A stretch of 32,000 nt of DNA from Candidatus Pacearchaeota archaeon (GCA_016186365.1 JACPLT010000022.1:5777-37776), one strand, 5' to 3'; shown: positions 3,416 to 29,933, counted from the stretch's first letter. Made by a program: numbers and translations. Notes: a model not told the origin generated them from the sequence alone.

Positions 3416-3564
3416 GAAAAATGTATGAAGGGGGAGTTTATAAGAATTTATATTGTAAAATGAAAATAAAAAGGTTTAAAAATGCCTGAAAATTGGAAGA
3501 TAAGTCATTCACTACATCGTTGAATGCAATTTTCTTGCATTAGACGCATTATGTAGGAGACATA

Positions 3565-4296: not shown

Positions 4297-4297
4297 G

Positions 4298-5131: not shown

Positions 5132-5416
5132 ATGGAATATGTATATGGCGCCTTGCTATTGCATAAATTAGGACAGCCAGTAAGTGAAGAAAACTTGAAG
5201 AAAGTTATAACTGCTGCTGGAAGCAGTGTTGATGAAGCTAAAGTGAAAGTTTTAGCTGCAAGCTTGAAAGATATAGATATAGGGAAAGAGCTTGAATCTG
5301 CAACACTCGCAGTAGCTGCTGGACCAAGTGCAAGTGCAGGAACAGAGAAGAAAGAAGAAAAGAAAGAAGAAAAAGCTGCTGAAGCTGCTGAAGGATTAAG
5401 CGCACTCTTCGGATAA
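5132..5416 (+). CDS. rpl12: 50S ribosomal stalk protein P1 (aL12)
   Basis: Starts MEYVYGALLLH, has a KKEEKKEEK hinge and the canonical C-terminus GLSALFG. The junction with P0 is TAAATG. Confidence 0.9.
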   Translation: MEYVYGALLLHKLGQPVSEENLKKVITAAGSSVDEAKVKVLAASLKDIDIGKELESATLAVAAGPSASAGTEKKEEKKEEKAAEAAEGLSALFG

Positions 5417-5563
5417 ATTTTTATTATTGTTTTAATCTGAAGAGTTCGTTTACTTAGTTGTGACATTAAGGTTTGATTTTATAAATAACTTAATTTTTGG
5501 AGATTACTAAGGTTCAATAATAATTTATTGCTAAGTTTTTACAAATGTCTTTGCATTATTTGG

Positions 5564-16384: not shown

Positions 16385-17341
16385 ATGGGAAGAAAAAGCA
16401 AACATCGAGACGGATCATTACAATTTTGGCCTAGAAAAAGGTCAAGCAAGTTCTTACCTAGTGTTAACTGGGATGTTTTAAATGGGGAGAAAGGAATTAA
16501 GGGGTTTATTGCATATAAGGTGGGAATGACTTCCTGCCTTGTCAAAGATACTACTTCTAATTCTCTTACAAAAGATAAAAAAATTGTTCTTGCTGCCAGT
16601 GTTCTGGAAGTGCCTGCTATGAAAATATTTTCTATAAGATTTTATAAAAATGGGATTGTTTCAAAAGAGATAATTTCTGAAAATTTAGACAAGGAATTAA
16701 AGAGAGTGATTAGAATTCCGAAGAAAAAGAGTGAAAATATAGACAGCATTAAAGATTATGATGATATCAGGATTATTGCATATTCAAAAGTTGGAGAAAC
16801 TGGGATAAAGAAAACTCCGGACATGACTGAAATTGGATTGCAGGGAAGCCTGGATGAAAAATTAAAGTTTGTTAAGGAGCACATGAGTAAGGAAATTAAA
16901 TTTTCAGAAATATTCAAGCCTGGAATTCTTGTAGACATAAGAGGATTAACAACAGGAAAGGGATTAGAAAGCTCAATTAAAAGATTTGGATTGGGATTAA
17001 AAGGGCATAAAAGCGAGAAAGGGCAGAGAAGACCTGGAAGCTTGGGGCCGTGGCATCCTGCGCATGTAATATTCAGAGTTCCTATGGCAGGGCAGTTAGG
17101 GATGTTTACAAGAATACAATATAATTCAAAGATAGTTTGTATTGGAAAAATTGCTGAAAAGAATATTAATCCTGAAAATGGCTGGAATGCTTATGGAAAA
17201 ATAAAAACAGAATATATAATTGTTCCTGGAAGTGTTCACGGAACAGCTAAGAGGCAGTTATTGCTGACTAGTCCGTTAAGAGCTACTAAAACCCGAATAA
17301 AAAAACAATATGAATTTGTAAAATTAGGAGATTTGAGATGA
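16385..17341 (+). CDS. rpl3: 50S ribosomal protein L3 (uL3)
   Basis: uL3 sequence (FWPRKRS..., GHKSEKGQRRPGSLGPWHP), first gene of the S10-like cluster. Confidence 0.92.
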   Translation: MGRKSKHRDGSLQFWPRKRSSKFLPSVNWDVLNGEKGIKGFIAYKVGMTSCLVKDTTSNSLTKDKKIVLAASVLEVPAMKIFSIRFYKNGIVSKEIISENLDKELKRVIRIPKKKSENIDSIKDYDDIRIIAYSKVGETGIKKTPDMTEIGLQGSLDEKLKFVKEHMSKEIKFSEIFKPGILVDIRGLTTGKGLESSIKRFGLGLKGHKSEKGQRRPGSLGPWHPAHVIFRVPMAGQLGMFTRIQYNSKIVCIGKIAEKNINPENGWNAYGKIKTEYIIVPGSVHGTAKRQLLLTSPLRATKTRIKKQYEFVKLGDLR

Positions 17342-17436
17342 AACTTAAAATTTATACTAAATTAAACAGAAATTTTAAGATCTTGGAGATTTGTGAATCC
17401 CCAAGCTTTCAAATTCCTGATGGAGATTTGAAATGA
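17338..17436 (+). other. Relay ORF (32 codons, MKLKIYTKLNRNFKILEICESPSFQIPDGDLK) bridging rpl3 and rpl4
   Basis: Its ATG overlaps the rpl3 stop (ATGA at 17338-17341) and its TGA overlaps the rpl4 ATG (ATGA at 17433-17436). It spans hairpins at 17344-17379 and 17407-17433. Confidence 0.5.
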
Positions 17437-18215
17437 AAACAAAAGTAATAGATATTGAAGGAAAACAGGGAAAGGAAATTGAACTGCCAGAATGTTTTTC
17501 TGAAAGTATAAGAGAGGATATCGCACAAAAATATTTTGAAACAGAAAAAGTAATACAGCCTTATGCTCCTTACATATATGCAGGAAAACAGAAAAGTGCA
17601 AGCGGAATAGTAGCCCATGGAAGAAGACTATGGAAAACTGCTTATGGGCATGGAATATCAAGAGTTCCAAGAAAAATATTATGGAGAAGAGGAAAACAAT
17701 TTTATTGGGTTGGAGCTACAATTGCTTCTGCTAAAGGCGGAAGAAGGGCACACCCTCCAAGGATAGTTCATTTTTTGAATTATAAAAAAGTAAACAGAAA
17801 AGAAGCTGAAAAAGCTATGGCATCTGGAATTTCTGCAACAGCTTCGCAGGAATATGTTCAGAAAAGATACCCTGATATGAAAATTTCATTAAAATTTCCA
17901 ATAGTTGTTGAAAGCAAGATTATTGATGCGAAAGCGAAAAATTTTATAAGTTCTCTTAAAAAAATATTGGGGGAAAATTATGACTCTGCTATTCCAGTCA
18001 AAAGAAAGAATGCGGGGAGAGGAAAAATGAGGGGGAGAAAATACAGAAATTCTGCGGGTTTATTGATAGTTATCGGAAAGAACGAGAATATGAAGTTCAG
18101 CAGACTGGATATAAAGAAAACAAACGAGCTGAAGATTAGGGATTTATTTCCTTTGGGGAGGCTTGCAATTTATACTGAAAGTGCAATTAAAGATTTGGGA
18201 GAGATGAACAAATGA
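17433..18215 (+). CDS. rpl4: 50S ribosomal protein L4 (uL4)
   Basis: uL4 sequence (GGRRAHPP motif) in conserved gene order. Confidence 0.9.
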   Translation: MKTKVIDIEGKQGKEIELPECFSESIREDIAQKYFETEKVIQPYAPYIYAGKQKSASGIVAHGRRLWKTAYGHGISRVPRKILWRRGKQFYWVGATIASAKGGRRAHPPRIVHFLNYKKVNRKEAEKAMASGISATASQEYVQKRYPDMKISLKFPIVVESKIIDAKAKNFISSLKKILGENYDSAIPVKRKNAGRGKMRGRKYRNSAGLLIVIGKNENMKFSRLDIKKTNELKIRDLFPLGRLAIYTESAIKDLGEMNK

Positions 18216-18451
18216 TAAGCCCGATAACAACTGAAAAAGCAGTAAAATTAATTGAAATAGAGAATACTCTTCTTTTTAAAGTAGACAGCAGAATGGACAA
18301 AGAGGAGATAAAAAGCGAGATTGAAAAATTATTCAATGTGAAAGTTGAGGGAGTCAGAACATTAATGAAAGGAAATGAAAAAGTAGCTTATGTTAAATTA
18401 AACAAAAAGAATCCGGCTATTGATGTAGCAACTAAACTGGGGATGATATAA
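18212..18451 (+). CDS. rpl23: 50S ribosomal protein L23 (uL23)
   Basis: ATGA overlap with rpl4 and a uL23-like sequence (LLFKVDSRMDKEEIKSEIEKLFNVKVEGVRT). Confidence 0.9.
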   Translation: MISPITTEKAVKLIEIENTLLFKVDSRMDKEEIKSEIEKLFNVKVEGVRTLMKGNEKVAYVKLNKKNPAIDVATKLGMI

Positions 18452-18453
18452 AC

Positions 18454-18591
18454 ATGACTAAAGAATTAAATAACCAACAGGAGAAAAACAGTTTAAATAT
18501 GCACGAAACAAATGGCATATTTAAAATCCGGAAAATTAAGAATTTTCCGGCTCTTTCGTTCCGGGGGAACTCAAGATGGGAAAGAGAATAA
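18454..18591 (+). other. Relay ORF (45 codons) from 3 nt after the rpl23 stop, running through modules A-B-C and ending 16 nt inside rpl2 in another frame
   Basis: MTKELNNQQEKNSLNMHETNGIFKIRKIKNFPALSFRGNSRWERE. Through the modules it uses the same frame as the other copies. Confidence 0.45.
18492..18575 (+). repeat. Hairpin cassette copy: A (18492-18525), B (18528-18550), C (18558-18570)
   Basis: A is TTTAAATATGC/GCATATTTAAA with loop ACGAAACAAATG. B is CCGGAAAAT/ATTTTCCGG, showing a compensatory A>G with T>C change relative to the other copies. C is GTTCC-GGG-GGAAC. Confidence 0.85.
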
Positions 18592-19274
18592 TTCAACAGG
18601 CAAGGGGGCACGGAAGCTTAACTTATCAGGTTAGAAAAAGAGCATACATATATAGAATTGACTATCCAAAAGAAGAAGGCAAGGCAAAAGTGCTGGAATT
18701 GTTTAATTCTTGTGCACATTCATCTCCTCTCGCAAAGATACTATTCAACGGAAAAACATATTATATTCCTGCGTTCAGCGGAATGGTTGAGGGACAGGGA
18801 ATAAAGATTGGAGGAAAAGAAATTGAAAATGGAAATGTATTATTATTAAAAGATATTCCTGTCGGGACAAATATTTTTAATATAGAAATAAGACCGAAAA
18901 GCGGAGGAAAATTAGTGAGAGCGTCAGGATTGACTGCAATTGTTACAAAAAAAGCTTTGGGAAAGGTTTCGATAATGATGCCCAGCAAAAAAGAAATATC
19001 CTTGGATGAAAACTGCAGAGCATCAATAGGAATGAGTGCAGGCGAGGGAAGAAAAGAGAAGCCGATTATCAAAGCAGGAAAAAAATGGTATATGATGAAA
19101 GCAAGAAACAAATTATGGCCTAGAACTTCTGCTGTAAAGATGAATGCAATTGACCATCCGTTTGGAAGCGGCAGAGGAAAAAGAATTAAGCCAAAGATTG
19201 CCAAGAGAAATGCGCCTGCTGGAGCAAGAGTAGGATTAATAAGACCAAGAAGAACAGGGAGAAAGAAGAGATAA
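18576..19274 (+). CDS. rpl2: 50S ribosomal protein L2 (uL2)
   Basis: uL2 sequence (MNAIDHPFGSGRGKR, C-terminal RRTGRKKR). Confidence 0.92.
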   Translation: MGKRIIQQARGHGSLTYQVRKRAYIYRIDYPKEEGKAKVLELFNSCAHSSPLAKILFNGKTYYIPAFSGMVEGQGIKIGGKEIENGNVLLLKDIPVGTNIFNIEIRPKSGGKLVRASGLTAIVTKKALGKVSIMMPSKKEISLDENCRASIGMSAGEGRKEKPIIKAGKKWYMMKARNKLWPRTSAVKMNAIDHPFGSGRGKRIKPKIAKRNAPAGARVGLIRPRRTGRKKR

Positions 19275-19275
19275 A

Positions 19276-19320
19276 ATGAAACTTAAAAAATTAAATAAAA
19301 AAAATATTTTAAAAATCTGA
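19276..19320 (+). other. Relay ORF (14 codons, MKLKKLNKKNILKI) starting 1 nt after the rpl2 stop
   Basis: Its TGA (19318-19320) lies in the loop of hairpin AAATC-TGAG-GATTT, 12 nt before the rps19 ATG. Confidence 0.4.
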
Positions 19321-19340
19321 GGATTTATTAAAATGGCAGA
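19307..19340 (+). repeat. 34-nt block TTTTAAAAATCTGAGGATTTATTAAAATGGCAGA, identical to 26575-26608
   Basis: Exact match that includes the start codon and next five bases of both rps19 and rps5. Confidence 0.9.
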
Positions 19341-19749
19341 TTTAGGAAAAAAACCGGAATTTGAAAAGAAGCAGTTTTTTTATAGAGGGAAAACTCTTGA
19401 AGAATTAAAAAAACTTGATACAAGAGAGTTCGCTAAATATGTTCCTGCGAGAGAGAGAAGGACTATACTTAGAAATTTTGATGTTATTGAGGAATTCGTA
19501 AAAAGATGCAATAAAAAAATGGAAAAAGGAAAACAGATAAGAACACATTTAAGAGATATAATAATAGTTCCGCAGATGGTTGGAATGATAATTAATATTC
19601 ACAACGGAAAAGAGTTTACACAGGTAAAAATAGTAGAAGATATGTTAGCCCATAGATTAGGAGAGTTCGCGATAACAAGAAAAGAAATTAAACATGGAGC
19701 TCCTGGAATCGGCGCGACAAAGAGCTCTGCTTCAATGTCAGTTAAGTAA
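19333..19749 (+). CDS. rps19: 30S ribosomal protein S19 (uS19)
   Basis: uS19 motif MLAHRLGEFAITRKEIKHGAPGIGATKSS. Confidence 0.9.
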   Translation: MADLGKKPEFEKKQFFYRGKTLEELKKLDTREFAKYVPARERRTILRNFDVIEEFVKRCNKKMEKGKQIRTHLRDIIIVPQMVGMIINIHNGKEFTQVKIVEDMLAHRLGEFAITRKEIKHGAPGIGATKSSASMSVK

Positions 19750-19758
19750 GGAGAAAAA

Positions 19759-20424
19759 ATGGAACGAGAATATATTAAAAATAAGAATGAACAAAAAAAA
19801 GAAAATGTAGCTGGAAACAAAATAGAAAATCCAAAAGACTTGCCTAAACAGGAAGCTCAAAATGTTGAGAAAAAAGAAGAGGACACAAAAACTGAAATCA
19901 AGGAAGAAGTTAAAACTGAAGAGAAGAAAGGAAAGGAAAAGAAGAAGCAAGAGAGAAAAATAAGAGAGCAGGCAGTTGTTAATGGAAAAGACTTGGGAAT
20001 TTCAAAAAAACAATCAATGGACATATGCAGGTTCATAAAAGGAAAGAGAGTTGAGCAGGCAATTAAAGAGCTTGAAGAGGTGGTTAAGATGAAAAGAGCA
20101 CTGCCTATGAGAGGAGAAATTCCACACAGGCATGGAATGATGTCAGGAAGGTATCCTAAAACTGCATGCGGAGTTTTTATAATGCTGCTTAAAAGTTTGC
20201 AGTCAAATGCGAGCGAGGGGGGAATAATGACTCCTCAAATAATTATGGCAAAGGCGAATAAAGCGTCGAGACCATTCAGAAGATTTGGCTCAAGAAAGTT
20301 CAAAAGAACGCATGTTAGTTTAATTGCAAAGGAATATATAGTGAAAGACACAAATCTTTCCCTATCTAGCAGAGGACATACAGAGAAGTTATCAAAGTCC
20401 TCCGCTATAAGAGCAAAGAATTAA
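19759..20424 (+). CDS. rpl22: 50S ribosomal protein L22 (uL22) with a K/E-rich N-terminal extension of about 70 aa
   Basis: The core starts near GKDLGISKKQSMDICRFIKGKRVEQAI. GGAG lies 9 nt upstream of the ATG. Confidence 0.85.
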   Translation: MEREYIKNKNEQKKENVAGNKIENPKDLPKQEAQNVEKKEEDTKTEIKEEVKTEEKKGKEKKKQERKIREQAVVNGKDLGISKKQSMDICRFIKGKRVEQAIKELEEVVKMKRALPMRGEIPHRHGMMSGRYPKTACGVFIMLLKSLQSNASEGGIMTPQIIMAKANKASRPFRRFGSRKFKRTHVSLIAKEYIVKDTNLSLSSRGHTEKLSKSSAIRAKN

Positions 20425-20454
20425 AGAAAGAAGAAAACAAGGAGAAAAAGTAAA

Positions 20455-21126
20455 TTGGAAGAGAGAAAATTTATACAGCTTAAGAAAGAAGAATTCGGAG
20501 TAAAGGAATACATAAGACAGCAGATAGGAAAGGGAAAGCTTAGTTCGATCTCTATTGAATATACTCCTGTGGGAGAAAAAATAATATTGTCTACAAGCAA
20601 GCCCGGAATGCTTATTGGGAGAGGGGGAGAAAAGATTATGGAGCTGACTGAAATATTAAAGAAAAGATTCAAGCTTGAGAACCCCCATATAGAAATAAAG
20701 GAGATTGAAAAAGGTGAGCTTGATGCGCAGACAGTTGCAGATGAGATTGCAATGTTTTTAGAAAGAATGGGGAGCCTGAAATTCAAGGTAATAGCCTATC
20801 AGATGATTCAAAGAATTATCGCTGCAGGAGCAAAGGGAGTAGAGATAAGGCTGTCTGGAAAGCTTCCAAGCGAAAGAGCAAAAAGCTGGAGATTTGCAGT
20901 AGGGTATCTTAAGAAAACTGGGGATACTGCAAAGGTGGTCAATAAAGGAGAGGCGGTTGCTGAAACAATGATAGGAGTAATAGGGATAAAAGTCGGTTTG
21001 CTTCCACCGGACATAAAAGTTCATGATCAGATAGAAGTAAATCAGGAATTATTAAATCAGATAAAAAAGAATTTAGAAAGTTTAGAAGAGAAGAAAGAAG
21101 AGAACAAAAAAACAAAGAACAAATAA
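20455..21126 (+). CDS. rps3: 30S ribosomal protein S3 (uS3), TTG start
   Basis: KH-domain GMLIGRGGEKI. GGAG at 20441-20444 lies 10 nt before TTG 20455. The C-terminal tail is K/E-rich. Confidence 0.88.
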   Translation: MEERKFIQLKKEEFGVKEYIRQQIGKGKLSSISIEYTPVGEKIILSTSKPGMLIGRGGEKIMELTEILKKRFKLENPHIEIKEIEKGELDAQTVADEIAMFLERMGSLKFKVIAYQMIQRIIAAGAKGVEIRLSGKLPSERAKSWRFAVGYLKKTGDTAKVVNKGEAVAETMIGVIGIKVGLLPPDIKVHDQIEVNQELLNQIKKNLESLEEKKEENKKTKNK

Positions 21127-21127
21127 A

Positions 21128-21310
21128 ATGGCAATAATAAAAAACAAAGAAATTAAAAATTTGCAGAAGAAGGACATAGAGGAAAAATTAAAAGAATTAA
21201 GAATGGAGTTGGTGAAGAAGAATGTAACTGCAAATAAATCCGGGAAAATAAAAACAAAAGAAATTAAAAAGGCAATTGCCAGAATACTCACACTGTTAAA
21301 CAAAAAATGA
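21128..21310 (+). CDS. rpl29: 50S ribosomal protein L29 (uL29)
   Basis: 60-aa helical protein in the conserved position after rps3. Confidence 0.85.
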
Positions 21311-21606
21311 ACATATGTCCAAAATGCGGTTTACCAGAGCAAGCATGTGTCTGTGCGGACATCGCAAAAGAAGAACAGAAAATAAGAATAGGGACAGTGA
21401 AAAGAAAGTTCGGAAAGATAACAACTGTTGTCGAGGGATTTGACAGCGGAATTGACATAAAGGAAATAGCCAAAAAGTTAAAAAACGAACTTGCCTGCGG
21501 AGGAACAGTAAAAAACAACTCCATAGAACTGCAGGGAGATCACACCAAGAAGATAAGACCTGCTTTGGTAAAGTACGGGTTCAGAGATGAACAAATAACT
21601 GAGTAA
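21307..21606 (+). CDS. Translation initiation factor aSUI1 (aIF1)
   Basis: N-terminal Cys cluster [13 protein letters not shown] and the SUI1 motif [22 protein letters not shown] overlap with rpl29. Confidence 0.85.
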
Positions 21607-21613
21607 AACAAAA

Positions 21614-21979
21614 ATGAAACAAGAAAAAAATGAAACAATAGTGGAAAGCAACAAAAACAGCTGTAATGATAGCCAGTGCAATATTCATTCTGGGTTAAAA
21701 GTCAGAGGAAGAACATTTGACGGCTATGTTACTAAGAAGTTTAACAGAAGAGTTGTAATTGAATTTGAAAAAATAGTTTATATCAAGAAATATGAAAGAT
21801 ATACAAAGAGAAAAACAAAGCTTCATGCGAGAGTTCCATCTTGTGTTCAGGAAAAAGTTAAAGTTGGGGATTATGTCAAGGTAGGAGAGTGCAGACCATT
21901 AAGCAAGATTATTCATTTTGTATTTTTAGAAAAAATAAGAGATGCTGACAAGAAAAATAATGAAGGAGATTTGAAATGA
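21614..21979 (+). CDS. rps17: 30S ribosomal protein S17 (uS17)
   Basis: CNDSQCNIH...RGRTF N-terminus and VGDYVKVGECRPLSK. Confidence 0.85.
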   Translation: MKQEKNETIVESNKNSCNDSQCNIHSGLKVRGRTFDGYVTKKFNRRVVIEFEKIVYIKKYERYTKRKTKLHARVPSCVQEKVKVGDYVKVGECRPLSKIIHFVFLEKIRDADKKNNEGDLK

Positions 21980-22377
21980 AACCAGTATCCGCAAAAACAA
22001 CAAAAGCGTTGAATATAGGAAGCATGGTTAATGTTGCAGACAACTCTGGAGCAAGAATTGCAAGAATAACTGGAGTTAAGGGGGGAAAAGGAAAGAAAGG
22101 GAGACAAATGGGATGCAAGCTTGGAGACTGGGTAAAAGTTTCTATAAGAGCTGGAAATCCTGAAATGAGAGGGCAGTTAATGGACGCTGTGGTGATAAGA
22201 GTAAAAAAGCCATACAGAAGACTAACTGGAGAGAGAATTGCTTTCACAGACAATGCAGTAGTAATATTAAAAGATGAAAAGGGAAATCCAAAAGGAACGC
22301 AGATTAAGGGACCTGTTCCTAGAGAGATACAAGAAAGATGGAAGGAGGTTTCCAAATTATCCGGGATAATAATATAA
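21976..22377 (+). CDS. rpl14: 50S ribosomal protein L14 (uL14)
   Basis: VADNSGAR motif and ATGA overlap with rps17. Confidence 0.92.
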   Translation: MKPVSAKTTKALNIGSMVNVADNSGARIARITGVKGGKGKKGRQMGCKLGDWVKVSIRAGNPEMRGQLMDAVVIRVKKPYRRLTGERIAFTDNAVVILKDEKGNPKGTQIKGPVPREIQERWKEVSKLSGIII

Positions 22378-22378
22378 G

Positions 22379-22837
22379 ATGAAACAAAAATTTTCAACCG
22401 CTTGGATAGGAAGCAGACAGCCGAGGAAGCAGAGAAAATTCAGAGAGAATGCTCCGCTTCACATAAAGAGAGAGATGCTCGCGGCAAACTTAAGCAAAGA
22501 GTTAAGAAAGAAACTTGGGAGAAGAAGCATAATTGTAAGGAAAGGAGACATGGTCAAGATAATGAGGGGAGAGTTCAGAGGGAAGACTGGAAAAGTGAGT
22601 GTTGTGGAAACAAAGGATACAAGAGTGGCAATAGAAGGAATACAAAGGCAGAAGAAAGAGGGTTCAAAAGTGAATGTTTATTTTAATCCTTCAAATTTGC
22701 AGATTACAGAAGCAAATACAGAAGACAAGAAAAGAATAAAAATTGAAGAGAAGAAAGAGGAAGCGAAAACAGAAGGAAAGAAGAAAGAAGATAAAAAAGA
22801 AAAACAAGGAGAAAAAAATGCACCTAACAAGAAATGA
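22379..22837 (+). CDS. rpl24: 50S ribosomal protein L24 (uL24) with a K/E-rich C-terminal extension
   Basis: KOW motif VRKGDMVKIMRGEFRGKTGKV. The tail is EDKKRIKIEEKKEEAKTEGKKKEDKKEKQGEK. Confidence 0.88.
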   Translation: MKQKFSTAWIGSRQPRKQRKFRENAPLHIKREMLAANLSKELRKKLGRRSIIVRKGDMVKIMRGEFRGKTGKVSVVETKDTRVAIEGIQRQKKEGSKVNVYFNPSNLQITEANTEDKKRIKIEEKKEEAKTEGKKKEDKKEKQGEKNAPNKK

Positions 22838-23450
22838 AATACCTGTAAAATGGAGAGTCCAAAAGAAAGGGACAAAATATGTAGTTACAACAAGGTACTG
22901 CAAAGATAAATCTATTCCTGTTCTTGTTGCTCTTAGAGACATGCTTAAACTGGGGCAGGACAGGAGAGAAGTTGAAAAAATACTGGATATGAGCAAGATT
23001 AAAATTAATGGAAAAATAATAAAAGAATCAAGATACCCTGTAACAATTTTTGATATTCTTAATATTGGAGATAAAAACTATAGAATGATTATCCAGAATA
23101 AAAAGTTCAGTTTAGAAGAAGTTTCCGGAAAAGAGGCAAATGAAAAGATAGCAAAAGTTATTGGAAAAAAAGTTCTGAAGAAAAAAATAATCCAAATTAA
23201 TCTGGCAGATGGGAGAAATTATAAAACAAAAGAAAAAGCAAAAGTTGGAGATTCAGTAATTATAAATTTTAAAGAGAATAAAATTTCTGAAACTCTTCCT
23301 ATGAAAGATGGAATGAAAGCAATGTTCCTTAATGGAAGCAGGATAGGGAAAGTGGGGGAAATTGAAAAAATAAATGGGAAGGAAGCAATAATAATCCTGG
23401 ACAAAGAGAAAATAAATGCTAAACTAATCAATTTAATGGCGGTAAAATAA
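22818..23450 (+). CDS. rps4e: 30S ribosomal protein S4e (eS4); start moved to ATG 22818 (the track ORF begins at 22743 inside rpl24)
   Basis: MHLTRNEIPVKW is the typical eS4 N-terminus. GGAG lies 7 nt upstream. The gene overlaps the rpl24 end by 20 nt. Confidence 0.85.
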   Translation: MHLTRNEIPVKWRVQKKGTKYVVTTRYCKDKSIPVLVALRDMLKLGQDRREVEKILDMSKIKINGKIIKESRYPVTIFDILNIGDKNYRMIIQNKKFSLEEVSGKEANEKIAKVIGKKVLKKKIIQINLADGRNYKTKEKAKVGDSVIINFKENKISETLPMKDGMKAMFLNGSRIGKVGEIEKINGKEAIIILDKEKINAKLINLMAVK

Positions 23451-23451
23451 A

Positions 23452-23952
23452 ATGGCAAATGTAATGGAAGAGATAAGGATAGAAAAAGTTGTAATAAGTG
23501 TAAGCGGGACTGCGGAAAAGCTTGAAAAAGGAAGAAAATTGCTAGAAATATTGTCTGGAAAAAAACCTGCTAAAATGAAATCAACTAAAAGAATTCCCTC
23601 TCTAGGAGTCCGCCCGGGATTAGAAGTCGGAGCGCTAGTTACATTAAGAAGAAAACCTGCAATTGACCTTCTTAGAAGACTGCTTGCTGCTGTAGATGAT
23701 ACTCTTAAAAGAAGGCAGATTTCAGCAGGGACAGTTTCATTTGGGATAAAAGAGTATATTGAAATTCCAGGAATGCAGTATAACAGGGAGATTGGAATGG
23801 CAGGATTAGATGTGAGCATAAGCTTTTACAGATTGGGAAAGAGAGTTAAGATGAAAAAAATAAAGACTGGAAAGATACCTGCAAAAAACAAGATAAGCAA
23901 AGAAGAAGTTGAAGCATTTTTAGAAAATAAATTAGGAGTGAAATTAAGATGA
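23452..23952 (+). CDS. rpl5: 50S ribosomal protein L5 (uL5)
   Basis: IEKVVISVSG... and EYIEIPGMQYNREIGMAGLDVS. Confidence 0.9.
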   Translation: MANVMEEIRIEKVVISVSGTAEKLEKGRKLLEILSGKKPAKMKSTKRIPSLGVRPGLEVGALVTLRRKPAIDLLRRLLAAVDDTLKRRQISAGTVSFGIKEYIEIPGMQYNREIGMAGLDVSISFYRLGKRVKMKKIKTGKIPAKNKISKEEVEAFLENKLGVKLR

Positions 23953-24053
23953 AAAAACTTAAAAGTTTTTACCTATTAAATTTCAGGAGAAATTTAAGAT
24001 CCAGAAAATCTGATGATTTTCTGGCTTTTGATTTCCGGGGGAAATCAAAATGA
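23949..24053 (+). other. Relay ORF (34 codons, [34 protein letters not shown]) bridging rpl5 and rps14
   Basis: ATGA overlaps at both ends (23949-23952 and 24050-24053). Confidence 0.5.
23953..24049 (+). repeat. Hairpin cassette copy in permuted order: D (23953-23970), C' (23979-23994), B (24001-24024), C (24030-24046)
   Basis: D is AAAAACTT-AA-AAGTTTTT. C' is AATTTC-AGGA-GAAATT. B is CCAGAAAAT-CTGATG-ATTTTCTGG. C is GATTTCC-GGG-GGAAATC. Confidence 0.85.
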
Positions 24054-24280
24054 CTGCAAGCGACTGGAAGAAGATTACGAAACAGCTTAGAAATAAGAAA
24101 GCAAAACTAAGCAAATTCCTAAGACATAATAAACCGAAAGATAGAAAAACAGGAATAGCAAAATATAAATGTGAAAGATGCGGAAGGTTTGGGGCGCATA
24201 TTTCTTCATATAATCTAAATTTATGCAGACAATGCTTCAGAGAGATAGCTGAAGAAATTGGATTTAAAAAATACAGCTAG
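24050..24280 (+). CDS. rps14: 30S ribosomal protein S14 (uS14), zinc-binding type
   Basis: CERCGR...CRQCFRE (two CxxC pairs). Confidence 0.85.
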
Positions 24281-24288
24281 GAGAAAAA

Positions 24289-24666
24289 ATGAGCCAAGAC
24301 ACAATTTCAGATGGATTAAACCAGATAATGAACTGCAAAAGAGCAGGAAAAGATAATGTAGTCATAATTAGGTATTCAAAAGTTTTGATAAATGTACTGG
24401 AGATTGCGAAGAAACAAGGGTATTTAGATTATCAGCTTGATGAAAAAAATAAAGTATTAAGAGTGAAAATAAAAAGCCTGAATGAAGGCAGGGCAATAAA
24501 ACCAAGATTCTATGTTAAAGTTGAAGAAATTGAAAAATATGTAAGAAGATATCTTCCGTCAAGAGAGTTCGGGATAATCTTAATTTCAACAAGCAAGGGA
24601 TTAATTACACAGGCAGAAGCTTATGAAAAAAATATAGGGGGAAGCTTAGTAGCTTATTTTTACTGA
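24289..24666 (+). CDS. rps8: 30S ribosomal protein S8 (uS8)
   Basis: DTISDGLNQIMNCKRAGK N-terminus and GGSLVAYFY C-terminus. Confidence 0.9.
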   Translation: MSQDTISDGLNQIMNCKRAGKDNVVIIRYSKVLINVLEIAKKQGYLDYQLDEKNKVLRVKIKSLNEGRAIKPRFYVKVEEIEKYVRRYLPSREFGIILISTSKGLITQAEAYEKNIGGSLVAYFY

Positions 24667-25205
24667 TGGTGAGAAAACCGATAAAAGATGAAGTTGAAAT
24701 TCCAGAAGGAATGAACGCCGAGATAGTTGGAGATGTAATCAAGATAAGCAAAGATGGAAAGAGTGTTGAGAAAAAAATATGCTACGAAGCAAAGATAGAT
24801 GGAAAAAAGATAGTAATTGAATGCAAAAGCCCCAGTAAAAATGAAAAAAAGCTGATAAAAACTACAAAAGCACATATTAAGAATATGATCAGCGGATTAA
24901 ATGAAAAGTATGAGTATAAAATGCAAATTTGCGCGGTTCATTTTCCTATGACTGTAACAGCTGCAGGGAATGAAGTAATTATTAAAAATTTCCTTGGAGA
25001 AAAAAAAGAAAGAAGGGCACAGATAGTTCCGGATGTAGAAGTTAAAATAGAAAAGGAGTTTATCACAATTAAAAGTGCAAGCAAAGATAAGGCGGGGCAG
25101 ACTGCTGCAAATATTGAAAGAGCAACTAAAATAAAAAATAGAGACAGAAGAGTTTTTCAGGACGGGATATACATAACTGAAAAACAGAAGGGGGCTACAA
25201 GATGA
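24666..25205 (+). CDS. rpl6: 50S ribosomal protein L6 (uL6)
   Basis: TGATG junction with rps8, two-domain uL6 sequence, conserved order. Confidence 0.9.
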   Translation: MVRKPIKDEVEIPEGMNAEIVGDVIKISKDGKSVEKKICYEAKIDGKKIVIECKSPSKNEKKLIKTTKAHIKNMISGLNEKYEYKMQICAVHFPMTVTAAGNEVIIKNFLGEKKERRAQIVPDVEVKIEKEFITIKSASKDKAGQTAANIERATKIKNRDRRVFQDGIYITEKQKGATR

Positions 25206-25252
25206 AAAAACTGAAGTTTTTACCTCTTTCGTTCCGGGGGAACTCAAGATGA
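25202..25252 (+). other. Relay ORF (16 codons, MKKLKFLPLSFRGNSR) bridging rpl6 and rpl32e
   Basis: ATGA overlaps at both ends (25202-25205 and 25249-25252). Confidence 0.5.
25206..25248 (+). repeat. Minimal cassette: D (25206-25221, AAAAACT-GA-AGTTTTT) plus C (25231-25243, GTTCC-GGG-GGAAC)
   Basis: 25224-25251 is identical over 28 nt to 18551-18578 (the rpl2 leader). Confidence 0.85.
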
Positions 25253-25611
25253 AAAATATTAGATTTTTAAGAACAGGAACAAAAAGACACAAGAGATTGG
25301 GAAAGGCCAATAAAAATAAACAGATATGGAGAAGACCGAAAGGAAGGCACAATAAAATAAGGCAAAATGAAAAATCAAAACAAAGAAAAGTTCAAATTGG
25401 ATTCAGAAGCAAACCAGAAGAAAGAGGGAAGATAAAAGGCAAGCCGATGCTGCTAGTCCGGAATATTAAAGAAGCAGAAAATGTAAAGACAGGAGATTAT
25501 GTTATTATCGGAAAAATGGGAAAAAAGAAGAAAATAGAAATTGAAAAAGTCCTGGAAGATAAAAAAGCAGTCATACTTAACAAGAGGAAAGAAAATGAGC
25601 TTAAAAAATAA
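25249..25611 (+). CDS. rpl32e: 50S ribosomal protein L32e (eL32)
   Basis: WRRPKGRHNKIR motif. Confidence 0.85.
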   Translation: MKNIRFLRTGTKRHKRLGKANKNKQIWRRPKGRHNKIRQNEKSKQRKVQIGFRSKPEERGKIKGKPMLLVRNIKEAENVKTGDYVIIGKMGKKKKIEIEKVLEDKKAVILNKRKENELKK

Positions 25612-25981
25612 AAAAATGTTGATTTCAAGAGTACTGAATGTAGGAGTGGGAAGAATAAAACTTAATCCCAATGCTAAAACAGAGATAGAAGAAGCAATAA
25701 CTAGGCAGGACATCAGAGATTTAAAAGAACAGGGGATAATAAGGATTGAAGAAGTTAGTGGAAGAAAAATAGTGGAAAAGAGAAAGAAGAGAAGAGCAGG
25801 AAAAATAAAGAAGAGAGTTGAGGGAAAGGATAGTTATGTTGTGGTTACAAGAAAGTTGAGAGGGTATTTAAAAAATTTGAAGAGCAAGGGGCAGATAAGC
25901 AAGGAAAAATATTATGATTTAAGGAGAAAGACAAAAGCAAGGACTTTTAAGGGACTTTCGCACTTAAAGGAGTCAATATGA
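25595..25981 (+). CDS. rpl19e: 50S ribosomal protein L19e (eL19); start moved to ATG 25595
   Basis: MSLKNKKMLISRVLNVGVGRIKLNP is the typical eL19 N-terminus. The gene overlaps the rpl32e end by 17 nt. Confidence 0.85.
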   Translation: MSLKNKKMLISRVLNVGVGRIKLNPNAKTEIEEAITRQDIRDLKEQGIIRIEEVSGRKIVEKRKKRRAGKIKKRVEGKDSYVVVTRKLRGYLKNLKSKGQISKEKYYDLRRKTKARTFKGLSHLKESI

Positions 25982-26481
25982 TTAAAGTAAAAAAATTAAG
26001 AAGAAGAAAGGGAAAAACCGATTATAGAAGAAGGGTTGAGCTGCTGAAAAGCGGTAAACCGAGAATTGTATTTAGAAAAACAAATAAGTATATTATCGGG
26101 CAATTTGTCATGAGCAAAGAAGCTAAAGACATAGTAACTGAGGGGTTAACTTCAAAAAACCTGCTTAAATATGGCTGGCCAAAAGAAAATATAGGAAGCT
26201 TAAAATCATTAGGAGCCGCATATCTAACAGGATATTTGCTAGGAAAAAGAGTATTAGATAAAGAAGAGAAAGCGGAAGGTATACTAGATATTGGACTGAA
26301 TACCAGTGTAAAAAAATCCAAGATTTATGCTTTTTTGAAAGGGGTAAAAGAAGCAGGAGTAAAAATAGAGTGCGATGAAAAATTATTTCCTGATGAAAAA
26401 AGAATAATGGAAAGCGGGAAAATGAAAAAAGCAGATATTTTTAAAAAAATAAAGGGAGAGATAGATAAGAAACTGGCATAA
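25978..26481 (+). CDS. rpl18: 50S ribosomal protein L18 (uL18)
   Basis: RRRKGKTDYRRR motif and ATGA overlap with rpl19e. Confidence 0.88.
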   Translation: MIKVKKLRRRKGKTDYRRRVELLKSGKPRIVFRKTNKYIIGQFVMSKEAKDIVTEGLTSKNLLKYGWPKENIGSLKSLGAAYLTGYLLGKRVLDKEEKAEGILDIGLNTSVKKSKIYAFLKGVKEAGVKIECDEKLFPDEKRIMESGKMKKADIFKKIKGEIDKKLA

Positions 26482-26482
26482 A

Positions 26483-26599
26483 ATGATAAATAATGAATTA
26501 AATTTTGAGAGAAGTTCAGAAATGCACGAGGCAAATAGCATTTCTGAAATCCAGAAAATCGGGGATTTTCTGGCTTTTAAAAATCTGAGGATTTATTAA
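26483..26599 (+). other. Relay ORF (38 codons, MINNELNFERSSEMHEANSISEIQKIGDFLAFKNLRIY) spanning the rpl18-rps5 spacer
   Basis: It starts 1 nt after the rpl18 TAA and its own TAA ends 1 nt before the rps5 ATG (TAAAATG at both ends). Confidence 0.45.
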
Positions 26600-26600
26600 A
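26515..26600 (+). repeat. Hairpin cassette copy: A (26515-26548), B (26551-26573), SD-loop hairpin AAATC-TGAG-GATTT (26581-26594)
   Basis: A is TTCAGAAATGC/GCATTTCTGAA with loop ACGAGGCAAATA. B is CCAGAAAAT-CGGGG-ATTTTCTGG. Confidence 0.85.
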
Positions 26601-27305
26601 ATGGCAGAAGAACGCAGAGATAGAAGAAGAGACAACAGAAACCCAAGAGAATCAAGATATGGGAGAAAGAGAGAAGAGCCAGAGCCAAAGCCATGGGTGC
26701 CTAAGACAAAGATAGGAAAACTTGTGAAAGAGGGCAAAGAAAAAGATATAGACAAAGTTATAAAAGAGTATAAGATACTTGAGCCAGAAATTATAGATAA
26801 TTTGATAGAAGTTAAATCCGATTTATTAAGCATAGGACAATCAAAAGGAAAATTTGGCGGAGGAAAAAGAAGGGTATGGAGACAGACGCAGAGAAAAACT
26901 GCAGAAGGAAATGTTCCTACATTTGCCTGCTTGTCTGTTGTTGGCGACGAGAACGGGCATGTCGGCATGGGTTATGGAAAAGCCAAAGAGACACCTCCTG
27001 CCAGAGAAAAATCACTAAGAAATGCCAAACTAAATGTTTTTGCTGTGAAGAGAGGATGCGCAAGTTTTGACTGCTCATGCAACGAGTTCCATTCAATTCC
27101 TATGAAAGTTGAAGGAAAGTGCGGAAGCGTAAGAATCATTTTGATTCCTGCACCTCAAGGGACAGGATTAGTTATAGGGGACGAGTGCAAGAAAATTTTA
27201 AGACTGGCAGGAATAAAAGATATTTACAGCAAAAGATTCGGACAATCAAGAACTACAATAAATTATGCCAAGGCGTGCATTGATGCCTTGAAGAAGCTAA
27301 AATGA
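26601..27305 (+). CDS. rps5: 30S ribosomal protein S5 (uS5)
   Basis: Archaeal-type basic N-terminus, GKFGGGKRRVWRQTQRKT, and uS5 domains. Confidence 0.9.
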   Translation: MAEERRDRRRDNRNPRESRYGRKREEPEPKPWVPKTKIGKLVKEGKEKDIDKVIKEYKILEPEIIDNLIEVKSDLLSIGQSKGKFGGGKRRVWRQTQRKTAEGNVPTFACLSVVGDENGHVGMGYGKAKETPPAREKSLRNAKLNVFAVKRGCASFDCSCNEFHSIPMKVEGKCGSVRIILIPAPQGTGLVIGDECKKILRLAGIKDIYSKRFGQSRTTINYAKACIDALKKLK

Positions 27306-27724
27306 TTTGCATTATAAGAATACGCGGACAGATTGGAATAAGATATGACATAGATGAAACCTTATTTAGAATGGGAATTAGAAAGAAATATTCATGCATT
27401 GTTATAAAAGAGACTAAAGAAAATTTAGGAATGCTTGCTAAAATTGAAAATTTTGTAGCATACGGAAAGATAGACAAAGAAATACTGGCAGAACTTATTA
27501 AAAAAAGGGGAAAGGCAATAGGAAACAAGAAAATAGACGCAGAAAAAATAGCTTCAGAATTTGCAGAGGGAAAAATAGACAAAAGATTTTCAGAGCTGGG
27601 AATAAAAGATTTTTTTACACTGCATCCTGCAAGAGGCGGAATGGAGACAAAATTCCACTATCCAAAAGGAGTTTTAGGGAATAATAAAGAGGATATAGCT
27701 AAATTATTGAGGAGAATGTTATGA
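27302..27724 (+). CDS. rpl30: 50S ribosomal protein L30 (uL30)
   Basis: ICIIRIRGQIGIRYDIDETLFRMGIRKK and ATGA overlap with rps5. Confidence 0.85.
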   Translation: MICIIRIRGQIGIRYDIDETLFRMGIRKKYSCIVIKETKENLGMLAKIENFVAYGKIDKEILAELIKKRGKAIGNKKIDAEKIASEFAEGKIDKRFSELGIKDFFTLHPARGGMETKFHYPKGVLGNNKEDIAKLLRRML

Positions 27725-28029
27725 GGAAAAAAGGATTTATAGACAACTGCGCCGCAGCTTGCATTACATCTTTTTCGCAGTTCTCTATCTGTCTAACTGT
27801 ACTAAATTGTCATCTAACCAATGCAGTTATCCATAACAATAGGAGATTTGACAGCAAAAATTCATGCTTGGATAGTATGAATTTAGGCTGCTCAGAAATG
27901 CACGAAACAAATAGCATTTTTGAGACTTCAAGAACTTCAGTTCTTGATAGTTCTCAGAAATTAAAAATTTCTGAAATCCAGAAAATCGGGGATTTTCTGG
28001 CTTTTGATTTCCGGGGGAAATCAAAATGA
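27721..28029 (+). other. 102-codon relay ORF filling most of the rpl30-rpl15 spacer (not a conventional protein gene)
   Basis: Its ATG overlaps the rpl30 TGA (ATGA). Its last 44 codons (MHETNS...) run through hairpin modules A, A2, A3, B and C, and its TGA overlaps the next ATG. Confidence 0.45.
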
Positions 28030-28078
28030 AAAAAACAAATGAATTTTTTGCCTCATTAAATTTCAGGAGAAATTTAAG
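27891..28078 (+). repeat. Expanded hairpin cassette: A (27891-27924), A2 (27929-27946), A3 (27955-27973), B (27978-28000), C (28006-28022), C' (28059-28074)
   Basis: All stems are perfect except for one G-T (G-U) wobble in A. 27992-28029 equals 24016-24053 (38 nt), and 28055-28080 equals 23975-24000 (26 nt). Confidence 0.85.
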
Positions 28079-28082
28079 ATGA
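28026..28082 (+). other. Relay ORF (18 codons, MKKTNEFFASLNFRRNLR), the last link before rpl15
   Basis: ATGA overlaps at both ends (28026-28029 and 28079-28082). Confidence 0.45.
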
Positions 28083-28525
28083 AACTCAAAAAAAATAAAA
28101 AATCAGTAAGAATGAGAGGAACAAGGTTGCATGGCTGGGGAGCTAAAAAACATAAGGGAAAGGGGAATAGAGGAGGAAAGGGGTTTTCTGGAAGCGGAAA
28201 AAGAGCAGACCAGAAAAAAACTTATGTTTTGAAATATCATTTTCCTTATTTTGGAAAACAGGGATACACAAGCAGAAGCACAAAAAGAAACAAACTTCTG
28301 TTCATAAATGCAGGAAATATTGAAACAAGATATAAAGAGGGGGAAATTGATTTGAGCAAGTATAAGATACTGGGAGAGGGAGAGATTAAGAAGAAATATA
28401 TTATAAAAGCCAAAGGGGTTTCTAAATCTGCAAGAGAAAAAATAGAGAAAGCTGGCGGGAAAGTCATGGTTATTGGGGAAAAATTAAAAGAGACAAGAAA
28501 AATAGAAGAGAAAAAGAAAGTTTAA
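28079..28525 (+). CDS. rpl15: 50S ribosomal protein L15 (uL15)
   Basis: MRGTRLHGWGAKKHKGKGNRGGKGFSG. Confidence 0.88.
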   Translation: MKLKKNKKSVRMRGTRLHGWGAKKHKGKGNRGGKGFSGSGKRADQKKTYVLKYHFPYFGKQGYTSRSTKRNKLLFINAGNIETRYKEGEIDLSKYKILGEGEIKKKYIIKAKGVSKSAREKIEKAGGKVMVIGEKLKETRKIEEKKKV

Positions 28526-28550
28526 ATACTAAATTTTTTTATTAATTATC

Positions 28551-29933
28551 ATGAATTTAAACACAATTTTGCATAATTTGCCTGAAATTCAGGGACCAGT
28601 AGAAAAGAAGCTCGCTTTTAACACCAAGCTTAAATGGACTTTAATTGTTCTTGCAGCTTTTTTTATTCTTGCGAATATACCCTTATATGGAATTGCTCAA
28701 AACTCTCTTGATAGATTTGAATATCTTGCGATTATACTAGGAACAGATTTTGGAAGCATAATCTCCCTTGGAATTGGGCCGATTGTTATGGCATCTATCA
28801 TCTTGCAATTGTTAGTTGGAAGTAAGATACTTAATATTGATTTGAAAAGCCCGGATGGAAAGAAATATTTTCAGGGGCTGCAAAAGATAGCAGTATTCTT
28901 TTTTATAATATTTGAGGCATTAGTGTATGTTTTAATGCAGGGGCTGGCAGCAGTTCCAGGATACGCACCAATTGTTATATTCCAGTTATTTTTAGGGGGG
29001 CTAGTAATTGTATTTATGGATGAACTTGTAAGCAAGTGGGGATTTGGCTCTGGAGTTAGTTTATTTATCGCTGCAGGAGTTGGTTGGAGATTATTTACTG
29101 GAATGTTCCAGTTCATAAGCCCGGGAGGAAATTGCTTGCTAGATTTTGACGGGACACCTTGCGCAGGAAAGATATTAATTATTTTCCAGTCTATCATAAG
29201 CCAGAATCCTACTGAAGCACTAAAAGCTGTCGCGGTTTTAGCTGTGACTGCGGGAATATTTTTAGTTATAGTCTGGGCACAATCACTCAAAGTAGAAATT
29301 CCGCTGTCATTTGATAGATTGAGGGGTTATGGAATGAAGTGGCCATTATCTTTCTTTTACACTTCAAATATGCCTGTAATATTAGTTGCAGCTCTTGCTG
29401 CAAATATTCAGTTATTTGCAGGACTGATTGAGAGCTGGCTCGGACATCCTACATTTTTAGGAACTTTTTCACAAGGACAGCCTGTTGCAGGTTTTGCTTT
29501 TTGGATATCTTCGGTGAATATTTTAGATAATCTTATATCCGGCAGTTTTAGAAGTATATTTGCATTGCAAGCACTAACTCACATTATCTTTTATATCGGG
29601 CTTTCTGTTGTTTTTGCATTATTCTGGGTGAAGACATCTGGAATGGATGCTTCCAGCCAGGCAAGGAACATAATGTCTTCTGGATTGCAGATTCCGGGAT
29701 TTAGGAAAGACGAAAGAGTTTTAGAAGTAGTTTTGTCAAGATATATCTTGCCATTGACAGTGATGGGCGGAGCAGCAGTTGGATTGTTGGCTTCTGCTGC
29801 AGATTTGCTCGGAGCATTAACATCTGGGACAGCAATATTGCTTGCAACAATGATAATTTACCAGTTCTACCAGAATATCGCGCAACAGCATGCGATGGAT
29901 ATGCATCCTTCTCTGAAGAAGATGATGGCATAG
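28551..29933 (+). CDS. secY: Protein translocase subunit SecY
   Basis: Ten-TM SecY/Sec61alpha-like sequence in the conserved position after rpl15. Confidence 0.92.
   Translation: MNLNTILHNLPEIQGPVEKKLAFNTKLKWTLIVLAAFFILANIPLYGIAQNSLDRFEYLAIILGTDFGSIISLGIGPIVMASIILQLLVGSKILNIDLKSPDGKKYFQGLQKIAVFFFIIFEALVYVLMQGLAAVPGYAPIVIFQLFLGGLVIVFMDELVSKWGFGSGVSLFIAAGVGWRLFTGMFQFISPGGNCLLDFDGTPCAGKILIIFQSIISQNPTEALKAVAVLAVTAGIFLVIVWAQSLKVEIPLSFDRLRGYGMKWPLSFFYTSNMPVILVAALAANIQLFAGLIESWLGHPTFLGTFSQGQPVAGFAFWISSVNILDNLISGSFRSIFALQALTHIIFYIGLSVVFALFWVKTSGMDASSQARNIMSSGLQIPGFRKDERVLEVVLSRYILPLTVMGGAAVGLLASAADLLGALTSGTAILLATMIIYQFYQNIAQQHAMDMHPSLKKMMA

Follow-up and report, generated by a model that had tools for sequence, protein, structure and literature searches.

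Hairpin cassettes bridged by putative relay open reading frames between the ribosomal-protein genes of a Candidatus Pacearchaeota archaeon

The ribosomal-protein genes rpl5 and rps14 of a Candidatus Pacearchaeota archaeon are separated by 97 nucleotides (nt), a large part of which recurs letter for letter in front of rpl15; this raises the question of what the spacer is, where it came from and how genes that are expected to be translated in close succession might accommodate it. The locus was analysed within a stretch of 32,000 nt (GCA_016186365.1, JACPLT010000022.1:5777-37776), referred to hereafter as the window, an AT-rich archaeal segment with about 33% G+C. The window embeds an S10/spc-type ribosomal-protein cluster running from L3 to L15 plus SecY (16385-29933, assigned through Pfam), and the identities of L5, S14, L30 and L15, i.e., the proteins encoded on either side of the two spacers under comparison, are supported by Pfam as well. 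The pattern described below is real, statistically solid as an ensemble and mechanistically plausible: the rpl5-rps14 spacer probably belongs to a mosaic family of REP/BIME/BOX-like hairpin cassettes, lineage-specific and sense-oriented, of the Pacearchaeota (DPANN), in which short relay open reading frames (ORFs), together with a Shine-Dalgarno hairpin, would keep neighbouring genes translationally coupled.

The spacer lies between the rpl5 stop codon (23950-23952) and the rps14 start codon at 24050. Two of its blocks are exact repeats of the region preceding rpl15, just as a sequence-only reading of this DNA had proposed: the block 24016-24053 is identical to 27992-28029 over 38 nt, and even over 39 nt if one more base is taken leftwards (24015-24053 = 27991-28029), while the block 23975-24000 is identical to 28055-28080 over 26 nt. 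According to a rough estimate, the number of exact 38-mer repeats expected by chance in 32 kb of such composition is far below 1e-10. Folded as RNA, the 97 nt form four consecutive perfect stem-loops, referred to as D, C', B and C (-32.3 kcal/mol, z = -4.13), and none of 200 shuffled sequences turned out to be equally stable. In the minimum-free-energy structure, module D (23953-23970, + strand) is a stem-loop of seven A/U base pairs (bp) located just 3' of the start codon of a relay ORF, and it has relatives at 25206 (D) and 28030 (D'). It is followed by C' (23976-23997, +), a 9-bp stem embedded in the 26-nt block, whose AGGA loop is part of the Shine-Dalgarno motif AGGAG, and then by B, or HP2 (24001-24024, +), in which CCAGAAAATC-TGAT-GATTTTCTGG forms a perfect 10-bp stem followed by CTTTT, as supported both by the fold and by a weak covariance-model match (23956-24025, E = 0.022). 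The last module, C or HP3 (24026-24050, +), has an 11-bp stem and a GGG loop, belongs to the 38/39-nt block 24015-24053, and carries a G-rich Shine-Dalgarno-like run located 8 nt 5' of the rps14 ATG.

The whole string is open in one reading frame. A relay ORF of 34 codons (23949-24053, +), which had already been noticed together with the length of the spacer, begins with an ATG overlapping the rpl5 stop and ends with a TGA overlapping the rps14 start (ATGA in both cases); it contains no in-frame stop, whereas the other two frames contain 3 and 4. The different order of the modules at the two sites, i.e., D-C'-B-C before rps14 versus A-A2-A3-B-C-ATGA-D'-C' before rpl15, is also borne out, so that the rps14 spacer can be written as [D-C'][B-C] and the rpl15 one as [..B-C][D'-C']. 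In the former, C' ends with ...AAGAT followed by CC, so that the ORF stays open, and it is succeeded by module B, as had been claimed and as the coordinates of the two modules require; the middle ATGA is altered to ATCC, a change by which two ORFs were apparently fused.

Exact repeats of 26-39 nt can mislead short-read assemblers, and a collapsed or chimeric repeat might in principle have generated the identities. However, Logan assemblies of three separate runs (SRR12113424, SRR12113430 and SRR12113431) independently reproduce the repeat flanks and stop inside the repeats. Contigs identical to the window cover 24024-26545 and 27091-28029; others, lying on 19311-24018 and 21959-24018, differ from it by two mismatches, away from the repeats; another contig of 1427 nt starts 22 nt 5' of the S5 gene and, being placed by its extent only, would correspond to the window from 26579 to about 28005 if collinear. 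Every contig end falls inside a repeated module (19311, 24018/24024, 26545/26579 and 28005/28029), which is the behaviour of real repeats longer than the assembler word length (the latter being assumed). Moreover, the joins across the 38-mer keep the universal gene order L5-S14 and L30-L15. An assembly artefact is thus extremely improbable; on the other hand, the repeats themselves fragment short-read assemblies inside the very block of ribosomal-protein markers that is used for phylogenomics and binning.

The spacers are not shared by related genomes. The S5 protein of the window has a 100% identical counterpart in NCBI, under the name Candidatus Pacearchaeota archaeon, the next-best relatives being 79% identical, and the closest genome available (L002) is one with an S5 protein 79% identical. 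Cassettes are absent from L002, where the junctions are tight: 1 nt separates L23 from L2 and L18 from S5, 2 nt separate L2 from S19 and L5 from S14, 3 nt separate L30 from L15, and L6 and L32e overlap by ATGA. In relatives, these junctions amount to 0-3 nt or to an overlapping ATGA. A comparison of the window with a dozen relatives shows, moreover, that the proteins encoded on either side have conserved C-termini and N-termini. The tight junctions of L002 and the conserved protein termini indicate that the spacers are, as judged from sequence comparison, lineage-specific insertions. In the relatives, the Shine-Dalgarno motif serving the downstream gene is embedded in the final codons of its upstream neighbour, an old site that, in the window, has come to precede the relay ORF.

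The rps14 spacer is not alone in being readable. All the seven spacers of at least 43 nt in the operon of the window are tiled by ORFs, whose starts lie within 3 nt, on either side, of the last base of the stop codon upstream and whose ends fall in the interval from 13 nt ahead of to 15 nt past the first base of the start codon downstream. ATGA is found at both ends of five ORFs distributed in four spacers (17338-17436, 23949-24053, 25202-25252, 27721-28029 and 28026-28082); among the remaining relay ORFs, stop and start lie 1-2 nt apart in two cases and as much as 16 nt apart in the others. When each spacer was shuffled, 1.08 bridged spacers were expected versus the 7 observed (0.74 versus 5 with strict criteria), and no stops are present in the relay frames versus 29 and 34 in the other two. 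The same tendency can be seen in 80 other Pacearchaeota loci, where relay ORFs bridge 56 of the 176 gaps that measure 30-130 nt, versus 7.4 expected, and 30 of the 80 that measure 61-130 nt, versus 2.0 expected; bridged gaps occur in 35 of 69 genomes. The strings are probably kept readable so that ribosomes can pass from gene to gene. The differences between copies are non-synonymous yet stem-preserving (e.g., IQKIGDFLA becomes IRKIKNFPA with paired base changes), and the longest of these ORFs, ORF102, has no homologue, which makes it unlikely that the peptides matter in themselves.

The analysis of the whole window discloses hairpin modules, in the form of perfect 7-11-bp stem-loops, at seven junctions and in one leader (L1), with four copies of A and five of B. 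Four types of ribosome-binding-site (RBS) hairpin (C, C', C3 and C4) are present in two identical copies each, with different partners, thus forming a mosaic. Copies of C precede rps14 and the rpl15 mini-ORF; C' occurs within the rps14 spacer and ahead of rpl15; C3 precedes rps19 and rps5 (34 nt identical), and C4 precedes rpl2 and rpl32e (28 nt identical). C5 is found in a single copy before rpl1. In each RBS hairpin, one of the Shine-Dalgarno-like runs AGGAG, GAGGA, GGGGG and GGAG occupies the loop or a site beside it, 7-9 nt 5' of the ATG, and the 12-nt loop of module A, ACGAAACAAAYR, is conserved in the four copies. The modules are arranged as A-B-C5, A-B'-C4, A-B-C3, A-A2-A3-B-C, D-C'-B-C, D-C4 and D'-C'. 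Module B is always preceded by ..AAT or ..GAT, which suggests that recombination may have occurred at short shared joints. All the module copies of the window lie within ribosomal-protein operons, and all the A, C and D modules, as well as all the strong covariance-model matches, are in the sense orientation.

A comparable organization is found in the genomes of other Pacearchaeota, although an exact or near-exact search for the modules in 80 related genomes retrieved none, the family being visible through a covariance model only. Cassettes of the same build occur at other junctions in four loci (L033, L019, L018 and L043); in L033, which harbors four of them, an RBS hairpin proper to this genome, ACAGGAGGTGYAGCTTCAGATGA, recurs at several junctions. 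The covariance model R1, which was built from L033, L019 and L018 only, with the window excluded, matches the window at 3563 (E = 4e-6), 26513, 17342 and 18490 (E values from 4e-6 to 7e-4) and, more weakly, at 27951 and in the rpl5-rps14 spacer; most of the 80 related genomes have no R1 match. The family, named HP1-HP2, is defined by the adjacent stem-loops TTCAAAAA...TTTTTGAA, followed by C[CT]NGANAAT...ATTNTCNG, and the cassettes of the window that R1 matches belong to it. One R1 copy was retrieved in a metagenome contig (L082), 5' of a non-ribosomal helix-turn-helix gene.

In an alignment of 18 copies, 95.8% of the cells are paired and compensatory changes affect 18 of the 26 stem pairs, a result reached by none of 500 shuffles; controls obtained by sliding the same alignment have 30-66% of cells paired. 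Among the non-Watson-Crick cells, G.U prevails over A.C (12 versus 3), which points weakly to the folding of the sense RNA. RNAalifold, when applied to a plain MAFFT alignment, recovered HP2 only, because of a one-column register shift in HP1. Gaps are more structured than coding controls (z below -2 in 31% versus 12%). Lastly, the orthologous S17-L14 cassettes of L019 and L033 are 83% identical, versus 73-79% at the nucleotide level for the flanking genes, and their stems show compensatory changes; being at least as conserved as its flanking genes, this cassette is made of sequences that are not drifting freely. The recent copying, gene conversion or mobility of modules that the sequence-only reading had put forward finds support in the tight junctions of the relative, in the mosaic of modules, in the independent assemblies and in the relay ORFs of all seven spacers. 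Three points go beyond it: the modules are perfect stem-loops with covariation, the family is common to other Pacearchaeota, and the last hairpin of each string carries a Shine-Dalgarno motif.

How might such insertions be tolerated? The cassettes may have been copied into formerly tight stop/start junctions and into the leaders of ribosomal-protein operons. Each of them would be a string of independent perfect stem-loops having HP1 (A) and HP2 (B) as a core and HP3 (C or C') as the last element, with its Shine-Dalgarno motif in or beside the loop, 7-9 nt 5' of the next ATG. Within operons, the whole string would be open as a short relay ORF, starting on the upstream stop (ATGA or TAA-N-ATG), stopping on the downstream start and using the old ribosome-binding site in the 3' end of the upstream gene. 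A ribosome finishing rpl5 might then re-initiate on the relay ORF, melt D, C', B and C while translating them, terminate at the second ATGA, having just passed and opened the Shine-Dalgarno motif, and re-initiate on rps14, so that the 97-nt insertion would leave the termination-reinitiation coupling intact. It is known that an intergenic distance of about 20 nt almost abolishes this coupling in Haloferax volcanii and E. coli (PMC10666635); therefore, an untranslated insert of 43-354 nt (97 nt at rps14) would be expected to uncouple the genes. In this reading, the identical blocks would derive from a recent exchange among junctions, by copying or recombination, with the shared ...AA(G/A)AT(GA) joints as its sites. 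Since a unit bounded by ATGA on both sides can be placed before or after any other such unit, both D-C'-B-C and the ...B-C / D'-C' arrangement before rpl15 could have been assembled in this way.

We also put forward, as a tentative proposal that may well prove wrong, that these stackable "translation-relay cassettes" represent an undescribed class of repeats adapted to translationally coupled operons. An element of this kind might insert at or beside a stop/start overlap, capture the old start codon and keep the frame open through its own hairpins; a terminal, self-masking Shine-Dalgarno hairpin plus ATGA might then hand the ribosome over to the displaced gene. If this were true, DPANN archaea would tolerate or exploit dozens of relay cassettes in their most essential operons, and the same logic would explain the tightly coupled cargo genes observed at the ribosomal-protein junctions of Pacearchaeota.

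Several observations weigh against the idea of hairpin cassettes with coupling-preserving relay ORFs. The rpl5-rps14 spacer alone, with its ATGA ends fixed, is open in 10% of shuffles (p 0.10), so that this single case is weak and the statistics draw their strength from the ensemble; the spacers forming it have modules in common and cannot be counted as independent. In the relatives, bridging affects only about one gap in three; the L018 leader copy before rpl3 has no ATG, and so no relay ORF, and the L033 copy between L14 and L24 is devoid of a relay start. The fact that leader copies can do without a relay ORF suggests that the hairpins are the core of the element, the open frame being an adaptation to the context. 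As for the stems, the 18-copy alignment was fitted to the model, and template switching during replication can make perfect stems with double changes in one step (PMC8794818), so that covariation is not proof of selection acting on RNA. A scan of the window ORFs revealed neither a transposase nor any other copying machinery, and a protein search carried out with S5 retrieved nothing between 79% and 100% identity in the databases searched. The counts of module distribution refer to the 32 kb of the window, which is the part of the genome that was sampled, and the translation of the relay ORFs, the coupling and the copying mechanism are all deduced from the sequence.

The alternatives account for part of these data. 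It might be supposed that the cassettes are purely selfish or neutral DNA repeats (REP/MITE-like, or arising through template switching or microhomology-mediated copying), with frames and Shine-Dalgarno motifs that are incidental or inherited from the duplicated junction. Occupancy does vary between genomes, the closest relative being devoid of cassettes, copies are identical within a genome, direct repeats of variable length flank the insertions, and perfect stems can be created by the template switching mentioned above. Nevertheless, we consider this explanation rather unlikely, given that all the significant copies are sense-oriented, that G.U exceeds A.C by 12 to 3, that relay ORFs are 8-15 times commoner than composition predicts, that an orthologous cassette is conserved at least as well as the flanking essential genes, and that the Shine-Dalgarno motif is constantly placed 7-9 nt before each ATG. 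Sense orientation, covariation and the conserved orthologous copy would also fit a host cis-regulatory RNA, in which HP1-HP2 might be a binding or processing site stabilising mRNA segments, as bacterial REP hairpins do, or might allow co-regulation by one trans-acting factor, the relay ORF being secondary; the presence of cassettes in leaders too (that of L1 in the window and that of L3 in L018) and the conserved 12-nt loop of module A point in the same direction. On the other hand, the closest relative is devoid of cassettes, most of the 80 related genomes have no model match, and the junctions occupied vary from genome to genome; furthermore, there is no Rfam family match and no candidate binding protein, so that we regard this possibility, too, with considerable doubt.

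It is very unlikely that module B is an intrinsic terminator or attenuator setting the transcription of distal genes. The copies at 18528, 24001 and 27978 do fit a hairpin-plus-T-run consensus, and the same letters form terminators in unrelated bacteria; however, terminator-like sites are not enriched in the operon (9 versus 6.9 +/- 2.7), the tail consists of just four T (CTCTTTC in one copy), HP2 of L033 and L019 lacks a T-run, and the sites are located inside operons of essential, equimolar proteins. In Archaea, moreover, termination depends on oligo-T tracts and is not known to require hairpins. The idea that the mini-ORFs encode functional small proteins might be inspired by their open frames, start codons and upstream Shine-Dalgarno motifs and by the recurrence of the peptide motif ..IQKIGDFLAF.., but the differences between copies are non-synonymous while keeping the stems, a search of 5.8 billion proteins gave no homologue of ORF102, and the orthologous peptides of L019 and L033 are poorly conserved in spite of 83% DNA identity; we deem it highly improbable. 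Other candidates were tried and rejected. An operator for a dimeric DNA-binding protein does not agree with arms that covary within one genome, nor with G.U exceeding A.C; an autoregulatory ribosomal-protein binding site does not agree with the same element preceding eight different genes; a C/D-box or K-turn RNA is suggested just by a chance UGAUGA in one B loop; and a leaderless promoter was rejected as well. The RBS hairpin as a duplicate of the native RBS in the 3' end of the upstream gene stands clearly above the non-cognate background at L3-L4 only, so that no general claim is made.

The other cassettes of the window, all on the + strand, are organized as follows. The leader of the L1-L10-L12 operon (3649-5416, Pfam) carries an A-B-C5 cassette (3563-3651; z = -4.5, E = 4e-6), which has a Shine-Dalgarno motif of its own, TAGGAGA, and contains an upstream ORF of 21 codons (3572-3637). 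In the L3-L4 spacer (17338-17436, E = 1.7e-4), a 32-codon relay ORF with ATGA at both ends contains three hairpins of different sequence, and the flanks are the direct repeat GGAGATTTGA(G/A)ATGAAA (17/18). The L23-L2 spacer (18454-18591, identified through the fold and the covariance model) embeds A-B'-C4 inside a 45-codon ORF that begins 2 nt past the L23 stop and ends 15 nt within rpl2, while the L2-S19 spacer (19276-19340) consists of a 14-codon ORF (19276-19320) and of the RBS hairpin C3, the block 19307-19340 being identical to 26575-26608. D-C4 is located between L6 and L32e (25202-25252) within a 16-codon relay ORF with ATGA at both ends and with CAAGATGAAAAA on each flank (12/12). The L18-S5 spacer (26483-26603; z = -4.3, E = 1.5e-4) carries A-B-C3 inside a 38-codon ORF, both ends of which are TAA-A-ATG. 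Between rpl30 and the next mini-ORF lies the 102-codon orphan relay ORF (ORF102, 27721-28029), with ATGA at both ends, whose codons 60-102 span A (27891-27924), A2 (27925-27951), A3 (27954-27974), B (27978-28000) and C (28002-28026); these five hairpins (z = -6.95) are followed by D'-C' in an 18-codon relay ORF (28026-28082), again with ATGA at both ends, which ends on the rpl15 start at 28079. The direct repeats flanking the insertions vary in length, i.e., 4 nt (ATGA), 7 nt (TAAAATG, two junctions), 12/12, 17/18 and 24/25 (L043), and are confounded by the general similarity of RBSs.

A search of 5.8 billion proteins with ORF102 retrieved only ORF102 itself. The segment 27725-27895 (171 nt) has twice the C content of its neighbours, has no predicted structure or homologue, and, of its six frames, has just the relay one open. 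Rfam 15 gave no matches at gathering score over the window and only chance-level ones (E >= 2.3) over 17300-28100; a tRNA scan of the window gave none, and no database record was found for the rpl15 product. Elsewhere in the window, two adjacent large ORFs on the minus strand, 7142-9037 and 9113-12211, have in common segments of 62-166 nt that are 80-84% identical; the former contains an Ig-like domain (Big_3_3), and the two probably encode paralogous surface proteins.

Some observations concern the ribosomal-protein junctions of the relatives. In L002, otherwise devoid of cassettes, an ORF of 126 amino acids (aa) joins rps17 to rpl14 with an ATGA overlap at each end (5075-5455). The rpl30-rpl15 junction of Pacearchaeota hosts many unrelated cargo ORFs (twelve loci), mostly starting and ending within about 3 nt of their neighbours; judged by eye, they include a Zn-ribbon protein of about 63 aa and MazG-like, NUDIX-like and metallo-beta-lactamase-like proteins. 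In L043, a block made up of rps3, rpl29 and SUI1 has moved between rps5 and rpl30. L018, L019 and L033, which also carry the HP1-HP2 family, have the same large L22-S3 and S5-L30 gaps, the latter being of 1.3-1.8 kb and found in L043 too, which suggests that the S5-L30 rearrangement is common to the four. A scan of metagenomes for module B retrieved the related archaeal contig L082 and four GC-rich terminators of unrelated bacteria, whose stem equals that of module B letter for letter, a coincidence that can mislead pattern searches. At 1500-1830 (-) of L082, what by eye resembles an intron-bearing tRNA is followed by a tRNA-Cys, by the B-like hairpin CCAGAAAATAATATATTTTCTGG and by another stretch similar to the 3' end of a tRNA; a full HP1-B cassette is located between the helix-turn-helix gene and what seems, by eye, to be a RelE-like toxin gene. 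A scan of viral contigs for HP1 gave weak model matches only, which do not support a viral origin.

Intergenic hairpin repeats such as REP, BIME and BOX are known mainly from bacteria. The repeats described here occupy ribosomal-protein operons, which are among the most constrained in a cell. The locus suggests how such insertions may be tolerated, i.e., as a mini-cistron coupled at both ends and closed by an RBS hairpin; it might serve as a natural test bed for the near-zero-distance rule of termination-reinitiation, as a ready template from which synthetic relay spacers could be designed and, for organisms that only metagenomes have revealed, as an indicator of recent genome dynamics. The literature searched contains no description of hairpin repeats acting as coupled relay cistrons, nor of such elements in DPANN archaea.

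Among known systems, the REP/BIME elements of enterobacteria and pseudomonads are likewise short stem-loop palindromes repeated at intercistronic sites of operons in mosaics of variable composition, whose mRNA hairpins can affect the stability and translation of the neighbouring cistrons (PMC2817692). BIMEs, however, are regularly spaced units in alternating orientation (PMC2817692), whereas the cassettes string together successive different modules in one orientation; the latter belong to an archaeal host, have no sequence relation to REP/BIME, and form an ORF coupled at both ends, so that they are not extragenic in the translational sense. REP/BIME elements go with a cognate REP-associated transposase (RAYT, IS200/IS605-like Y1) and number over 100 per genome; no RAYT transposase was seen in the window ORFs scanned (32 kb). 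Unlike MITEs, the cassettes lack terminal inverted repeats and fold as strings of local hairpins without end-to-end pairing. They resemble the pneumococcal BOX (boxA-boxB(n)-boxC), RUP and SPRITE elements in having few module types in variable number and order, a strong structure and a location near genes or in transcripts (PMC3049150). The host belongs to another domain of life, and homology to boxA, boxB and boxC would not be expected. To our knowledge, BOX elements are not arranged as relay ORFs and supply no RBS to the next gene. Rickettsia palindromic elements (RPEs) are palindromic repeats that survive in coding sequences through an open, translated frame and become part of the host protein. 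In the present case, the host proteins keep their termini, and the repeat stands by itself as a mini-cistron flanked by two genes. Reviews of RPEs and of other in-frame repeats within genes are available (PMC2229807, PMC10969869). Finally, termination-reinitiation coupling at ATGA/TGATG overlaps has been described by Huber et al. in 2019 (PMC6728339) and 2023 (PMC10666635), and the relay ORFs have the same 4-nt or near-zero stop/start layout in operons for the subunits of one complex; yet, while in the known cases two real genes are coupled directly, here a chain of dummy hairpin-repeat ORFs would relay the ribosome across an insertion.

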